64,000 nt of DNA from contig JAFDAM010000001.1 in NCBI GenBank assembly GCA_019313825.1, forward strand, positions 13,121 through 77,120, given 5' to 3'. This document shows, one piece after another, positions 3,977 through 61,482 of this stretch. The stretch is from Deltaproteobacteria bacterium. Its GTDB lineage: Bacteria > Desulfobacterota > DSM-4660 > Desulfatiglandales > HGW-15. How positions within the stretch are numbered: the first letter of the stretch is position 1; every line of letters begins with the position of its first letter. A program made the position numbers and the translations under genes. The notes beneath the pieces were generated by a model, which worked only from the letters and a program-made list of their open reading frames with translations, was not told where the DNA came from and ran no database searches.

Positions 3977-4231
3977 GGAACTACTCAGGTTTAAAATTTC
4001 GGAGGTTCAGGGTTCCCCGATAAACCGGGATCTTCGACAAGGTTAAAATGATGAAAGAGGGGTTCGATTCAGAGACAAATGCCAAGTTCATACGGTTTTT
4101 ACGATACGCCAATCCTGTTTGCACGGAAGTCCAGAGCATACTCTATGTCGCCCTGGAAATATAAAGAAGATTGCAAAATGATTAACCGTGAACTGTGAAC
4201 ATTGAACCTGATAACCTGGACAGTTACAACC
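3977..4231 (+). mobile_element. Decayed copy of the four-helix-bundle (IVS-like) cassette: inverted arms plus a ~35-codon gene remnant
   Basis: The left arm carries AACTACTCAGGT. The right arm is a heptamer array (cgtgaac tgtgaac attgaac ctgataa cctggac). The internal frame 4057-4164 reads GFDSETNAKFIRFLRYANPVCTEVQSILYVALEI, matching residues of the intact copy at 36108-36479. Confidence 0.7.
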
Positions 4232-4627: not shown

Positions 4628-4656
4628 CAGTAATGTCCGGTAAGGATTTTGCAATG
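4628..4656 (+). repeat. Module C repeat (CAGTAATGTCCGGTWAGGATTTTGCA)
   Basis: The same ~30-nt module recurs at 21374-21407 (+), 24842-24870 (-), 36934-36958 (+) and 37361-37392 (-). Confidence 0.8.
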
Positions 4657-21370: not shown

Positions 21371-21614
21371 GCCGGTAATATCCGGTTCGGATTTTGCGCT
21401 AATAATGTTTGTATCCAAAAAATGGCCGGTGGGGGTCTCTTTTCAATGGCAACCGGGTTAGAAGCAAAAGTTCAATAAAAGGTGCCTGCCAGGCGGACGG
21501 AATGCCTAAATCCACCATCTAATTTCCACATCATCAATGCGGATAAAAGATTTTGGTCTGTCCCTGGGCTCCAGCTAGGTATTAGATATCTGCAAGTTGA
21601 GCCCGCGAAATCCC
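21371..21614 (-). repeat. Partial copy (module C + left half) of the composite hairpin element at 36931-37392
   Basis: Reverse-complement match, high identity by eye, running from the ATGGCCGGTGGGGGTCTCTTTTCAATGG terminus through GAGCCCGCGAAATCCC. The distal half is missing. Confidence 0.8.
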
Positions 21615-24734: not shown

Positions 24735-24870
24735 GTGAAGAACCCCGACAAAAGGTCGGGGCTTCTTCTAAGGAAATAGCCTGTTTGATTTTTGAGGCTC
24801 CGCCCCCAAACCCTTACGGGCAATCAACTTCAATACGCCGGCATTGCAAAATCCTAACCGGACATTACTG
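24735..24870. repeat. Module D (hairpin GAAGAACCCCGAC..GTCGGGGCTTCTTC + GAGGCTCCGCCCCCAAACC) followed by module C
   Basis: Near-identical to 36804-36887. Module C lies at 24842-24870 in reverse orientation. Confidence 0.8.
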
Positions 24871-25109
24871 AATACAATGGGGATTGCGTATTTTTATCGG
24901 CTGTGTTATGTCATGAATGACATAATGAATCATGGGCTATTACGGTTAATCATATCTACCAACGCACATCTCTGCCTTTCCTCATTATCTGAGTATTTAT
25001 TCGGGACAAGGCAGGCAATGAAAGAGATTGCCAAGCTCGCGAATCAGTTGAAAACAGATGAAAAAATAGTGATCTTTAGATCCCATTTTTAAAAGGAGAG
25101 TTAAAAGGA

Positions 25110-35605: not shown

Positions 35606-36059
35606 GAAATTGCAATAATTGCAATTTTATTCTAAGAAACCTCTCAGAGTGCGGAGGACATTAATGGCCGGGGGAGACCCCTCGCCAAGGCTGTGTCCGA
35701 CTTTCAGAGATATTCTTATGGCAAGGAAAAGTGATTTGAAGGGAAGGAAAATTGGCGGGGAGAGACGACCATCAAAATCAACCATCGTCGTTCCTGCCGT
35801 ATAAAAACAAACCTGAAATACCTGCACTTTTTTCATTTTATTTAATAACCAAAACAACTGTTTTGGATCATTACAGTATAAAATATAGTGTACTTTTGCC
35901 CTTTATTTTGTGCACTATCACACAAGTTTATGTGCATTTAACTCCTATTCTTTCATGTATCAATCAATGAAAAACCCCTCATACCTCAGCTCTTCCTGAT
36001 GTCCTATTGCCCAGGCACATTCTGGCACAAATCTTGTAGATACTTTTCCGTAAAAACAA

Positions 36060-36512
36060 CTACTCAGGTTCATGGTTCAAGGGTTCACTGTTCAAGGTTA
36101 GGATGAGATGAAAATTAAACGGTTTGAAGATATTGAGGCTTGGCAACTGGCACTTCGTGCTGTAATCGATGTACTGGCATTTATCAACTATGGGCTAAAG
36201 AGACAGATACAAGATTCTGCCGGATCATCAATGCATAATATTGCCGAAGGTTTTGAATCCGAGACGAATGGGGAGTTCATCCGTTTCTTGCGGTATTCTA
36301 AGCGGTCTTGCTCGGAAGTCCAGCGCGAGCTTTACATCGCTGTGGAGGAAGAATACATATCGCACGGCGAATTCAAAGATGTCTTCAAGCAAGCCAGACG
36401 AACACGTGCTGCAGTTCGTGGTTTTATCAATTATCTCAAAAAATATGGGGGGTGCAAGGCGACCAACCGTGAACCATGAACCGTGAACCTGACAACCTGA
36501 GTAGTTATAAAA
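36060..36512 (+). mobile_element. Intact four-helix-bundle (23S-IVS-protein-like) cassette with inverted heptamer-array arms
   Basis: The left arm AACTACTCAGGTTCATGGTTCAAGGGTTCACTGTTCAAGGTT and the right arm AACCGTGAACCATGAACCGTGAACCTGACAACCTGAGTAGTT are reverse complements enclosing the ORF. Confidence 0.8.
36108..36479 (+). CDS. Four-helix-bundle protein (23S rRNA intervening-sequence protein / Avd-like family)
   Basis: MKIKRFEDIEAWQLA.. N-terminus, IAEGFE.., FIRFLRYSKRSCSEVQ.. The pattern and ~120-aa length are typical of the TIGR02436/PF05635-type family as I recall it. Confidence 0.8.
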   Translation: MKIKRFEDIEAWQLALRAVIDVLAFINYGLKRQIQDSAGSSMHNIAEGFESETNGEFIRFLRYSKRSCSEVQRELYIAVEEEYISHGEFKDVFKQARRTRAAVRGFINYLKKYGGCKATNREP

Positions 36513-36530: not shown

Positions 36531-36788
36531 ATGGCACAACCGGAAAAAAGATTTAAATGTGGCGCATGCGAGGTATCTATCTTTGAAAATACAATAACTA
36601 CAAAAGACGGGAAAAAAATGAGAACTAAAAAGGCCTCTTTCCAGAAACGATACAAAAATGCAGATGGAGAATGGAAATCCACAAACAGTCTTGATGTTAA
36701 TGATATCCCCAAAGCCAAACTGGTGCTTAGTGAGGCCTATAAATACCTGGCTCTTAGTAAAGACATTGAGGAAAACGGGGATAATTAA
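36531..36788 (+). CDS. Small hypothetical protein (85 aa)
   Basis: RBS GGAGG lies upstream. The sequence is basic, beta-rich and protein-like (..SFQKRYKNADGEWKSTNSL..). No confident family assignment. Confidence 0.45.
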   Translation: MAQPEKRFKCGACEVSIFENTITTKDGKKMRTKKASFQKRYKNADGEWKSTNSLDVNDIPKAKLVLSEAYKYLALSKDIEENGDN

Positions 36789-36803: not shown

Positions 36804-36887
36804 GTGAAGAACCCCGACCAAAGGTCGGGGTTCTTCTAAGGAAAAAGCCTGTTTGATTTTGGAGGCTCCGCCCCCAAACCACTACGG
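36804..36887. repeat. Module D repeat with a 14-bp perfect hairpin (36806-36836)
   Basis: GAAGAACCCCGACC-aaa-GGTCGGGGTTCTTC followed by GAGGCTCCGCCCCCAAACC. Second copy at 24735-24820. Confidence 0.8.
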
Positions 36888-36930: not shown

Positions 36931-37392
36931 CGTCATGTCCGGTTAGGGTTTTGTAATGCCGGCATATGGAAGTTAATGGCCGGCGGGGGTCTCTTTCCAT
37001 GGTCGAACTGCATTATGTGCAGTGCATCCGCATGAAGCCGGAGGAGGCGGACGGGGGCTTCCTCTGATATTATCCGATCTGAACGAGGCTGAATAACGGA
37101 GAAGCATTCCCTGATCCACCATCAAGACATCATCTGTCCCGCTCCTATCGGGATTTCGCGGGCTCAACTTGCAGACATCTAAATACCTTGCTGGTGCCCA
37201 GGGACAGACCAAAATCCTTTGTCCGCATGGATGATGTGGAAATTAGATGGTGGATGTGGGCATTCCGTCCGCCCGGCAGGCGCCTTTTATAAAAGTTTTG
37301 CTTCTAACCCGTTCGCCATTGAAAAGAGACCCCCACCGGCCATCTTTAGAATACAAATGTCATTAATGCAAAATCCTAACCGGACATTACTG
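36931..37392. mobile_element. Composite MITE-like element: module-C outer inverted repeats + ~27-bp inner TIRs + long internally paired core, no ORF
   Basis: Inner TIRs ATGGCCGGCGGGGGTCTCTTTCCATGG (36976-37002) / CCATTGAAAAGAGACCCCCACCGGCCAT (37316-37343). Outer module C at 36934-36958 / 37361-37392. Internal long-range complementarity (ATCCACCATC..CATCATC with GATGATG..GATGGTGGAT). Confidence 0.75.
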
Positions 37393-37450: not shown

Positions 37451-37714
37451 CTATATCTTCGGGCCTGCTTCCTGGTGAGAACCGGCTAATATCAAAGTAA
37501 TACAACCTGCCTTTGTATAAAAGCGGAAATACTCGGCCTGACTCTCACGTGCGTACCCTTCAACGATCTTTGATGGAACTGAAATCGCAGCTCTTCTCAT
37601 TTGGGAAGTCAACCCATATACTTCCTCCTCAGGAAATTCTCTATGAGCTCGATAGACCAGAAGCGCCACTTCGTCAGCCAATTCAAACGCTCTGAGCTTC
37701 GTATGATCACGCAT
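37451..37714 (-). pseudogene. Truncated four-helix-bundle (Avd/23S-IVS-like) gene: only the first ~66 codons are family-like
   Basis: MRDHTKLRAFELADEVALLVYRAHREFPEEEVYGLTSQMRRAAISVPSKIVEGYARESQAEYFRF is family-typical. Similarity is lost near 37516, next to the composite element. An upstream anchor TAACTGCTCAGGT is present. Confidence 0.7.
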
Positions 37715-37761
37715 GATTCTTTCCTACAGCCTATCTACCTGAGCAGTTACATGAAAGTAAA

Positions 37762-55273: not shown

Positions 55274-56824
55274 TTGGCCTTTGAAATTCCAAAACAACCC
55301 TATTCCGGAGAGATAGGAGAGACCACCATCGGTACAGGTAAGGGCGCTGTTACGCTGGGAGGGGAAGATTCATACCCTTTCCATACCTTTGAAGGAAAGA
55401 TGCCGAACCCTCCAAAGATCGCCATGGAGGTCTGGGATTACGATCCAACAGAGGAGTGGCCGGCAGCGGCAGTTGAGCCCTTTAAGGATGTAATATCATC
55501 GCCGGATGCATGGGCAAAAAAATGTGTTGATGAACATGGGGCTGACATGATAGTGCTCCAACTAAAGAGTACCGACCCCAACGGAATGGACAGGGGTGCG
55601 GACGAGGCCGCTGAAGTAGCGAAAAAGGTGGCTGATGCCGTTGACGTGCCGCTGGTCTTATGGGGTACGGCAAATAACCAGAAAGACGAAGAGGTCCTTA
55701 AAAAGATCTCAGAGGTATGTGAAGGGAAAAATGTGGCGCTTGGTCCGGTTGAAGAGGGGAATTACAAGGCAGTCGGTGCAAGCGCCTTGGGTTATAATCA
55801 CATTATTATCTCATCATCACCCATTGACGTGAATCTGGCCAAGCAGTTGAATATTCTCCTTGGAAACCTCGGGGTCCAGAGCAATAAAATCATCATAGAT
55901 CCCACGACAGGCGGACTCGGTTACGGCATGGAATACGGCTACTCCGTCATGGAGCGGATCCGTATGGCTGCCCTGACACAGGAAGACGAAAAACTCCAGA
56001 TCCCCATGATCAACAATATAGGTAATGAGGTATGGAAGTGCAAGGAGGTCAAGCAGCCCATAGATGAGGCCCCTGCGCAGGGTGACCCGGAGAAACGGGC
56101 TATCATGATGGAGGCGACAGCCGCTGTATGTTATCTGCTTGCCGGATCTGATGTGGCCATCCTCAGGCACCCTGAGAGCGTGCGTCTGACCCGTTCTTTC
56201 ATCGATCTCATGATCAACGGCGGTATGGCCACCGACGTTACGGAGATTGCAAAGAACCTGGACCTTGAAGAGGCTGATCTGACTGCCATATCGCCTGAGC
56301 CGAACCTTGACTTTGGTGAAAAAGAGGCATCCAGAGAGAAGCCTGCCAAGCCCAAGAAGAAGGAAGCGCCCAAGCCCAAAAAGGAAGCAAAGACGGCCGC
56401 GCCCAAACTCAAGAAGAAGGAAGAGCCTAAGGTAAAGGCCAAAGATGAGGCCAAGGCAAAGGCCGAGGATGAGGCCAAGGCAAAGGCCGAGGATGAGGCC
56501 AAGGCAAAGGCCGATGCCGACGCCAAGGTAAAGGCCGAAGAGGGTGCCAAGGCTGAGGCGGATGCTAAGGCAAAGGCCGACGCTGCGGCAAAGGCCGAAG
56601 ATGATGCCCGGAAAAAGGCCGAGGCCGACGCCAGGGCAAAACGCGAGGCTGGAGAGGATGAGCAGAGGCAGAAGAGGGCGGCTGAGCGGGAAAAACTCGC
56701 GGCAGAGAGAAAAAAGGTCCCTGAAAAGCCTGATACAATGACCCCTGCGGCTGTGCAGAAGACAGAGCAGGAAAAGATATTAGAGCATCTGAACAGGATA
56801 CACAGGAGAATACCTTTATATTAA
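55274..56824 (+). CDS. acsD: Corrinoid iron-sulfur protein small subunit (AcsD/CdhD type) with a ~190-aa Lys/Ala/Glu-rich C-terminal extension
   Basis: TTG start after AAAGGAGGT. The N-terminal ~330 aa are AcsD-like (TIM-barrel pterin-binding-like, ..LVLWGTAN.., ..IIDPTTGGLGYG..). The tail is low-complexity AKAKAEDE repeats. Confidence 0.8.
   Translation: MAFEIPKQPYSGEIGETTIGTGKGAVTLGGEDSYPFHTFEGKMPNPPKIAMEVWDYDPTEEWPAAAVEPFKDVISSPDAWAKKCVDEHGADMIVLQLKSTDPNGMDRGADEAAEVAKKVADAVDVPLVLWGTANNQKDEEVLKKISEVCEGKNVALGPVEEGNYKAVGASALGYNHIIISSSPIDVNLAKQLNILLGNLGVQSNKIIIDPTTGGLGYGMEYGYSVMERIRMAALTQEDEKLQIPMINNIGNEVWKCKEVKQPIDEAPAQGDPEKRAIMMEATAAVCYLLAGSDVAILRHPESVRLTRSFIDLMINGGMATDVTEIAKNLDLEEADLTAISPEPNLDFGEKEASREKPAKPKKKEAPKPKKEAKTAAPKLKKKEEPKVKAKDEAKAKAEDEAKAKAEDEAKAKADADAKVKAEEGAKAEADAKAKADAAAKAEDDARKKAEADARAKREAGEDEQRQKRAAEREKLAAERKKVPEKPDTMTPAAVQKTEQEKILEHLNRIHRRIPLY
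56444..56515 (+). repeat. Three tandem 24-nt coding repeats (GATGAGGCCAAGGCAAAGGCCGAG) inside the acsD tail
   Basis: Perfect x2 plus one copy with one end mismatch. Encodes (DEAKAKAE)x3. Confidence 0.9.
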
Positions 56825-61304: not shown

Positions 61305-61482
61305 TAAAATTGCTATGCAATTTTATAGAACGCACCGCCTGCGGCGGAGCACAGAGCGGCGAAGCCGTATTATAGAAAAATATGTTATACAATTTTATAC
61401 AACGCTCCGCCTGCGGCGGAGCTTAGAGCGGCGAAGCCGCATTATATAAAATCGTGAAACGATTTTATTAGAGGAGATAATT
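61305..61482. repeat. Alternating AT-hairpin / GC double-hairpin modules in the acsB-acsC spacer (two tandem GC units)
   Basis: AAAATTGCtatGCAATTTT; [CGCACCGCCtgcGGCGGAGC..GCGGCgaaGCCG]; ..; [CGCTCCGCCtgcGGCGGAGCTTAGAGCGGCgaaGCCGC]; AAAATCGtgaaaCGATTTT. The GC unit is the reverse complement of the one at 56848-56894. Confidence 0.85.

Follow-up and report, generated by a model that had tools for sequence, protein, structure and literature searches.

How a small gene comes to be multiplied together with inverted arms, at sites where no transposase is found beside it, is the question raised by a 64-kb stretch of a Deltaproteobacteria bacterium genome (assembly GCA_019313825.1, contig JAFDAM010000001.1; hereafter the window, in whose coordinates all positions are given). 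To our knowledge, genes of the PF05635 "four helix bundle" (4HB) family are very common and unexplained. The window carries three cassettes with such a gene or its remnant, and inspection of the letters and open reading frames (ORFs) alone (hereafter the sequence-only reading) had described them as a mobile or at least duplicative unit without a transposase, spread by a mechanism that was not obvious. The first part of this description agrees with our searches, as relatives of the cassettes carry target-site duplications (TSDs) and tblastn found no IS66 transposase in the window. For the mechanism, a likely answer can now be given, namely terminal inverted repeats (TIRs) of the IS66 family of insertion sequences (ISs), with 8-bp TSDs in relatives. 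We consider it quite probable that the cassettes are non-autonomous IS66-family derivatives of the single-ORF ISBst12-group type, resembling miniature inverted-repeat transposable elements (MITEs), i.e., mobile insertion cassettes (MICs) with a passenger gene.

Cassette copy 1 (36056-36508, plus strand) has both ends complete and consists, in order, of a left TIR, a left heptamer array, the PF05635 ORF, a right heptamer array and a right TIR. The left TIR, ACAACTACTCAGGT (36056-36069, plus strand), differs from the consensus GTAACTACTCAGGT in its first two bases, while the right TIR is ATAACTACTCAGGT (36495-36508, minus strand, read inward); the mutated outermost bases are AC at the left end and T at the right. 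The left subterminal array of GGTTCAN heptamers (36067-36099, plus strand) is followed by a Shine-Dalgarno-like AGGATGAG directly 5' of the ATG, and an array of NTGAACC heptamers lies on the right (36465-36489, plus strand). Tandem Repeats Finder called a period of 7 on both sides (36066-36099, with 4.7 copies, and 36465-36489). The enclosed gene (36108-36479, plus strand, 123 aa) matched PF05635 at 7e-20 and TIGR02436 at 3.7e-20. The right-arm heptamers supply its last residues, NREP, as well as its stop codon; their TGA recurs with period 7 and, as read from the sequence, provides a stop codon in all reading frames. The inverted arms of anchor plus heptamers proposed earlier were recovered at 36058-36099 and 36465-36506 (42 nt each, 365 nt apart, 74% complementary), each made of the anchor AACTACTCAGGT followed by GGTTCAN-type heptamers; the anchor had been drawn 2 nt too short. 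Folded as RNA, the whole unit was predicted to have paired arms (minimum free energy -147 kcal/mol, z = -5.0), in keeping with the ORF-enclosing stem that had been suggested for it. The anchor occurs exactly at 3979 (plus), 36058 (plus) and 36495 (minus), and with one mismatch at 37737 (minus). By our own arithmetic, about 0.008 exact occurrences of the 12-mer would be expected in 64 kb, against the three observed, although a shuffle test of the anchor with up to two mismatches allowed was by itself not significant.

We then turned to relatives of the cassette. A look-up of the exact window protein gave no record. Its detectable homologues number 2837, most of them 130 aa long, approximately 70-75% identical and ending in ...NREP, and more than 542 relatives were found in a collection of one genome per species. 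The best 80 of these >542 relatives are denoted L001-L080 (L-numbers refer to loci of relatives or of matching elements). Among the closest of the 80, protein identity reached 86-100%, and these relatives occur in metagenome-assembled genomes (MAGs) assigned to Desulfobacterota, Methylomirabilota, Nitrospirota, Chloroflexota, Thermotogae, and Planctomycetota. Their flanks mirror those of copy 1, running from GTAACTACTCAGG and TTCANGG units through AAGGTTAGAGAGCG-ATG and the ORF to AACCGTGAACC units and CCTGAGTAGTTAC, and the conserved end is the anchor plus 2 nt (consensus GTAACTACTCAGGT). Copy 1 aligned with the cassettes L001, L005, L006, L007, and L010 over the whole unit and both ends at a mean column identity of approximately 88%. 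Several copies are present per genome or contig in some cases (L001 with L013, L040 with L045, and the window itself). Arms unique to this locus would have told against the sequence-only reading; arms and anchor are widespread.

The identity of the ends was the next point to be settled. Ends starting with GTAA, combined with an 8-bp duplication, form what we take to be the signature of the IS66 family. ISDge4, an element of this family (ISBst12 group) with a single 449-aa transposase, is flanked by an 8-bp direct repeat, and its TIRs read GTGACTACTCAGCA and GTAACTGCTCAGCA (PMC12898284). Likewise, an IS66-like element of Geobacillus kaustophilus pHTA426, whose transposase matches PF03050 and NF033517, has the ends GTATCTATTCAGCCC and GTAACTATTCAGCCC and the TSD GACGAGTT. 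Metagenome and viral contigs were scanned for GTAACTACTCAGGT and searched by tblastn with the transposase of the pHTA426 element; IS66-type transposases adjoining this 14-mer were found at 14 loci, most with the TIR at both ends and some with 8-bp TSDs (L252, L105, L162, and L187). Autonomous ISs that combine these ends with a PF03050 DDE transposase are thus on hand in metagenomes. The cassettes start with 5'-GTAA, as GTAACTACTCAGG(T), and are identical to the ISBst12-group ISs (ISDge4 and the pHTA426 element) over 12-14 nt (GTAACTACTCAGG / GTAACTATTCAG), with which they also share 8-bp TSDs in AT-rich targets. Together, ISDge4, the pHTA426 element and the 14 metagenome and viral loci confirm the cassette ends as IS66-type; judged by sequence identity, the anchor is the TIR of single-ORF IS66-family ISs of the ISBst12-group type. 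The cassettes differ from these ISs in lacking a transposase, in their size (approximately 450 bp versus 1.5-2.7 kb), and in carrying heptamer arrays and a PF05635 gene. No GGTTCA array was found in the 14 IS66-type transposase loci. Since autonomous ISs with an identical TIR lack the arrays, the heptamers belong to the cassettes and not to the IS. For the same reason, the heptamers are unlikely to serve in transposase binding. This TIR was also observed on larger IS66-type elements (L192:111-2687, L156:30-2706, and L199:537-3641), having an extra ORF of approximately 291 aa upstream of the transposase, which in L192 matches the Druantia protein DruA (PF14236, 7e-35).

The duplicated target, 8 bp long and AT-rich, was recovered at many insertions. 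Exact 8-bp TSDs lie outside G-TAAC...GTTA-C in L004, L006, L007, L010, and L072, and seven of the eight bases agree in L001, L005, L009, L014, and L069. Exact TSDs also accompany the variant TIRs GTAACCGTTCAC and GTAAGCGTTCAC in L040 and L042. In a systematic scan, at least 7 of 8 bases matched in 8 of 44 candidates, compared with none of 44 when the right flank was shifted. Furthermore, a set of short paired elements of 60-483 nt (L083, L107, L109, L146, L147, and L227) has the same ends, and exact TSDs throughout; it includes L107 as well as L146, which has kept the GGTTCA arrays and lost the ORF.

Given that the cassettes contain no PF03050 DDE transposase, they were filed as non-autonomous derivatives and not as ISs. 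A tblastn search with an IS66 transposase found none in the window or within approximately 3 kb of the 80 related cassettes L001-L080. As their shared ends and TSDs suggest, the cassettes most likely depend for movement on an IS66-type transposase encoded at another place; the transposase of a resident IS66-type element would bind the TIRs and move the cassette in trans. Defective copies bear on this point. One cassette of the sister subfamily to which window copy 3 belongs has a broken ORF and a length of 476-483 nt. It was found at three sites, 97.5-99.6% identical and in unrelated flanks, and two of the sites have their own distinct TSDs, AGCAAAAT and ATTTAGCC. The presence of this dead-ORF cassette at unrelated sites indicates that the cassette moved without an intact ORF, and a requirement for the 4HB protein in cis was therefore rejected. 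Internally deleted derivatives of 60-350 nt occur as well. In the sister subfamily generally, stops, frameshifts or an internal replacement have left the best 120 of 570 relatives with a length of only 65-113 aa. Ends and TSDs of a parent IS, dispersed copies and movement without a transposase of their own are seen here as in MITEs and mobile insertion cassettes.

The passenger gene itself appears to have been maintained. Across 16 full-length cassettes, the median synonymous divergence (pS) was 0.51 and the nonsynonymous divergence (pN) 0.053, giving a dN/dS of approximately 0.07, and this strong purifying selection argues for a functional 4HB protein. By these sequence comparisons, the protein is functional yet dispensable in cis for transposition; it might bind to the repeats in the arms or have a role in the host. 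PADLOC returned no defence-system match. The nearest solved structure to one relative (P0006) was XCC0516 (2GSC; E = 3e-10), a pentameric toroid of four-helix bundles (PMC4990558). The Avd label of the sequence-only reading holds at the level of the Pfam family PF05635; no Avd structure was matched, as the sequence search of solved structures at E <= 0.001 gave only 2GSC. The gene of copy 1 had further been called intact. It does match PF05635, but alignment with homologue sequences revealed an abnormal ORF, in which the patch 36135-36190 in the helix-1/loop region is an in-frame replacement with a net loss of 21 nt. Its protein has 123 aa versus 130 aa in relatives, and the cassettes compared are approximately 90% identical elsewhere. 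The gene of copy 1 may accordingly be non-functional or recombinant.

IS66-type ends also enclose genes of another family, GxxExxY / PD-(D/E)XK (PF13366, TIGR04256), at L037:2410-2875 and L013:6119-6390. These cassettes have subterminal repeats of their own, namely GCACCAAG and a CACAGAT that resembles the GACAGAT heptamer of the Coxiella IVS (intervening sequence in 23S rRNA). The GxxExxY family is presumably IVS-associated as well.

The arms were complementary in all 68 cassettes tested, with a median duplex energy of -49 kcal/mol compared with -27 kcal/mol when the right arm was shuffled. Left arms paired with their own right arms at -49 kcal/mol versus -42 kcal/mol with the right arms of other cassettes, and the own right arm ranked among the top five for 17 of the 68 left arms; covariation is thus only moderate. 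The repeat unit varies across lineages while the two sides remain mutually inverted: AGTTCCC arrays occur in two Acidobacteriota cassettes, AGTTCAC in Verrucomicrobiota L024 and Desulfobacterium L038, while the sister subfamily has GGCTGAAG, Riemerella GGTTTAA, and Nostoc ATCC 53789 GGGAAAA/TTTTCCC. Right-arm arrays are much expanded at L013:3380-3480, L028:3270-3340, L019, and L037:3380-3460, with at least 10 copies of CCATTGAA, CCTCGAA or CCCTGAACCTTTGAA. This expansion in some cassettes suggests that the copy number changes by slippage, and variation in heptamer copy number has been reported for the Coxiella IVS (PMC4990558).

The ORF mostly points the same way as the adjacent host genes (approximately 85%): it is co-oriented with the upstream neighbour at 60 of 69 loci, and for the downstream neighbour the count is 53 of 63. 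In the window, copy 2 is co-oriented with both neighbours, copy 3 with the upstream one, and copy 1 with the downstream one. Many cassettes fill precisely the gap from the stop codon of one host gene to the start codon of the next, and insertions at gene junctions seem, from the sequences at the junctions, to leave both reading frames intact. An ATG forms the end of several TSDs (right flanks of L007, L008/L012, L009, and L083); in L007 and L008/L012 this ATG is apparently the start codon of the downstream gene, whose N-terminus resembles Lgt in the former and GDP-fucose synthase in the latter. The gene upstream of the L008/L012 cassette now stops at a TAA within the TIR (G-TAA-C).

These features suggest how a cassette might be accommodated in an operon. 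Presumably lacking a promoter of its own, it would be transcribed by read-through from the upstream host gene, and the arms (TIR plus inverted arrays) would pair into a long hairpin enclosing the ORF in the host transcript, as in 23S IVSs. Such a hairpin would be a likely substrate for RNase III, insulating the insert or excising it from the host transcript, and the period-7 TGA of the right arm would end translation in all frames shortly before the next host gene begins. The hairpin may act at the RNA or at the DNA level.

Several observations weigh against the interpretation as a whole, from IS66-type mobility to the hairpin. The case for transposition of the cassettes comes from sequence comparisons, and that for processing of their RNA from prediction. 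When sense and antisense duplexes were compared for G-U pairs as a sign of strand-specific RNA selection, the antisense duplex was slightly more stable in 47 cassettes and the sense duplex in 21, which lends no support to RNA-specific selection; counts of pair types, biased by the folding algorithm, did not enter this result. In the Nostoc PCC 7120 example, the flanking arrays are not complementary. Most taxonomic assignments are those of MAG bins, in which contamination is possible. No recognisable TIR was found in 46 of the 80 related cassettes with the patterns used here, and in several cassettes the arrays directly abut host stop and start codons. Finally, a clean TSD is absent from the window copies themselves. 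Whereas many relatives have the 8-bp duplication, agreement in the window is 6/8 at best; for copy 1, the TSD is ambiguous owing to A-rich flanks (GTAAAAAC compared with AAAAAAAC).

The want of clean TSDs in the window would fit stationary host genes, whose arms are regulatory or terminator-like palindromes or repeats of the repetitive extragenic palindromic (REP) type and whose copies arose by duplication. Many relatives at conserved operon positions (e.g., L008 with L012, and L060 with L066) would fit them too. We nevertheless regard stationary genes as very improbable, given the exact 8-bp TSDs at many independent insertions, for which the shifted-flank control argues against an artefact of AT-rich sequence, the ends identical to those of autonomous ISs, the 99.6%-identical element in unrelated flanks, and the cross-phylum distribution.

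The TIR-less relatives might instead reflect either decay or overwriting of the TIR, or a second route of spread. On the latter assumption, the primary unit could be the 4HB gene with its inverted arrays, an IVS-type module that spreads or persists independently, for instance through hairpin-dependent recombination or template switching, with IS66 TIRs captured secondarily in one branch. The 46 of 80 cassettes that have arrays and lack a recognisable TIR would be expected in this case, as would the unrelated arrays that flank PF05635 genes without a GTAA end in Riemerella and Nostoc, the heptamers of the Coxiella IVS, the lack of arrays in autonomous ISs with this TIR, and the GxxExxY cassettes with their own arrays. 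However, the TIR-less copies showed no TSD, end signature or enzyme, and TIR decay is expected after immobilisation, with degenerate, intermediate TIRs seen in L025, L048, and L070. Every demonstrably recent insertion has an IS66 TIR and an 8-bp TSD. We therefore hold an independent mechanism to be unlikely and favour mobilisation by an IS66-type transposase.

Movement through RNA, by a retroelement or linked to a diversity-generating retroelement (DGR) with an Avd-like protein and a reverse transcriptase, or movement as an integron-type cassette, appears the least credible of the explanations. PF05635 does include the Avd proteins of DGRs (PMC10053308), and the cassettes share with them the Pfam family and the four-helix-bundle fold class, and a compact ORF cassette recalls an integron. 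They differ from DGRs in that there is no adjacent reverse transcriptase and no template or variable repeat, and they were not classed with them; no reverse transcriptase-like ORF is present among the ORFs listed for the 34-40 kb and 1.5-7 kb stretches, which surround the three cassettes. TIRs with a fixed 8-bp TSD are, moreover, a signature of DDE transposition. An integron gene cassette was rejected: arms flank the ORF at its left and its right, the ends are GTAAC...GTTAC with an 8-bp TSD, and there is no attC core (GTTRRRY), no integrase, and no PADLOC match.

Among non-autonomous IS derivatives, we take MICs and MITEs such as MIC231 of Bacillus cereus to be the closest. They share with the cassettes IS ends and a TSD without a transposase, and some have a passenger gene. 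The present cassettes differ in their IS66 parent, in a passenger under strong purifying selection, in arms extended by inverted arrays, and in retained copies that are strongly sense-oriented in transcription units.

The comparison with 23S IVSs containing an S23p/PF05635 ORF (Leptospira, and Coxiella burnetii helix 45) extends to a length of approximately 430-480 nt, the protein family, a predicted stem enclosing the ORF, and heptamers in variable number (PMC4990558). In the Coxiella IVS, tandem heptamers precede the S23p ORF, and RNase III excises the insert by cutting within a terminal stem of 28 bp (PMC4990558). Terminal complementarity, sometimes with a PF05635 ORF, is equally found here in the predicted fold and in the arm duplexes of the 68 relatives. 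The defining location of an IVS (helix 9, 25 or 45) is a different matter, since no copy examined here sits in an rRNA gene. In agreement with the earlier placement outside rRNA, Rfam found no rRNA in the window, tRNA-Pro being the only RNA gene, and blastn with E. coli rrlH found no 23S sequence in the window or in approximately 320 loci. No Rfam family matched the arms or the cassette at the gathering score or at E <= 1. Both ORF families associated with IVSs are involved in the cassettes described here, PF05635 genes and GxxExxY/PD-(D/E)XK genes, the IVS link of the latter being one that we assume. The 23S IVSs have been suspected to be mobile since ~1990, with no transposition mechanism established (PMC4990558 reviews the hypotheses). 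By analogy, we tentatively raise the possibility, which we would not yet call probable, that ORF-bearing 23S IVSs (Leptospira, Coxiella, and others) are insertions of the same IS66-mobilised cassette class. The arms might then be an adaptation for RNase III excision or insulation that lets the element survive in rRNA genes and operons, and the 4HB protein might act on the repeats. We found no paper linking PF05635 cassettes or IVSs to IS66 ends in the searchable literature, a search that did not extend to subscription literature or ISfinder.

The remaining copies of the window are less complete. The sequence-only reading had counted three copies of one cassette; copies 1 and 2 do belong to the same subfamily, and copy 3 represents a sister cassette family. 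Copy 2 (3977-4227, plus strand) has the ends GGAACTACTCAGG and GTAACTGTCCAGG, both decayed, degenerate arrays, and internal deletions that left a 38-codon gene remnant at 4048-4165, which matched PF05635 weakly (1.6e-5, under the gathering score). Its neighbours, a phosphomannomutase-like gene on one side and a small downstream gene on the other, are likewise plus-strand genes, in a neighbourhood of sugar-nucleotide genes. Copy 3 (37527-37750, minus strand) starts 12 nt past the stop codon of a co-oriented FGE-sulfatase gene. It has the TIR GTAACTGCTCAGGT at 37737-37750, subterminal repeats of the GATAGGCTGTAGG type and, of its PF05635 gene, the first ~63 codons; homology ends near 37527 and the distal end is absent. 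Its ORF (37451-37714, minus strand) matched the N-terminal half of the PF05635 model at 2e-18. Compared with the subfamily of copy 1, the protein is 35-40% identical, the subterminal repeats are of the GGCTGNAGG type, and only the TIR is common; the amino-acid identity with the L107 cassette is 81%. From their mutated terminal bases, internal deletion and truncation, the three window copies look like decaying relics.

Copy 1 lies between an acetyl-CoA-synthetase-like ORF and an 85-aa ORF, of which the downstream one is co-oriented with it. The 85-aa ORF (36531-36788), directly downstream of the cassette, has its own GGAGG ribosome-binding site, no match in Pfam or PADLOC, and a perfect 14-bp hairpin after it (36806-36836). 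Further on lies a non-coding element of approximately 460 nt (36932-37392) with nested long-range inverted repeats, for which Rfam gave no match and a very stable fold was predicted (-197.6 kcal/mol, z = -7.2). A stretch at 21375-21614 shares 89% identity with it over 241 nt, and fragments of its termini are present at 24819-24872 and 4628-4653; the copies at further sites make this element a second repeated family in the genome. It is probably, on its sequence, a foldback MITE, or else a structured RNA. Tandem Repeats Finder also reported repeats at 61306-61451 / 56429-56608, respectively a 72-nt unit present twice (88% matches) that includes a palindrome rich in GC, and a coding-type repeat of 24/48 nt with much AAGGC/GCC.

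Taken together, one large PF05635 subfamily, its sister subfamily and some GxxExxY genes are tied to a system of IS66-type ends and 8-bp TSDs, which supplies a concrete, testable transposition mechanism for IVS-like cassettes and would explain why these genes are multicopy, occur across phyla and lie embedded in operons. For annotators, these units, as well as many truncated "four helix bundle protein" calls, become recognisable as transposon relics. The cassette is a compact natural insertion seemingly built for tolerance inside transcription units, and the origin of IVSs becomes testable through the termini of real IVSs.

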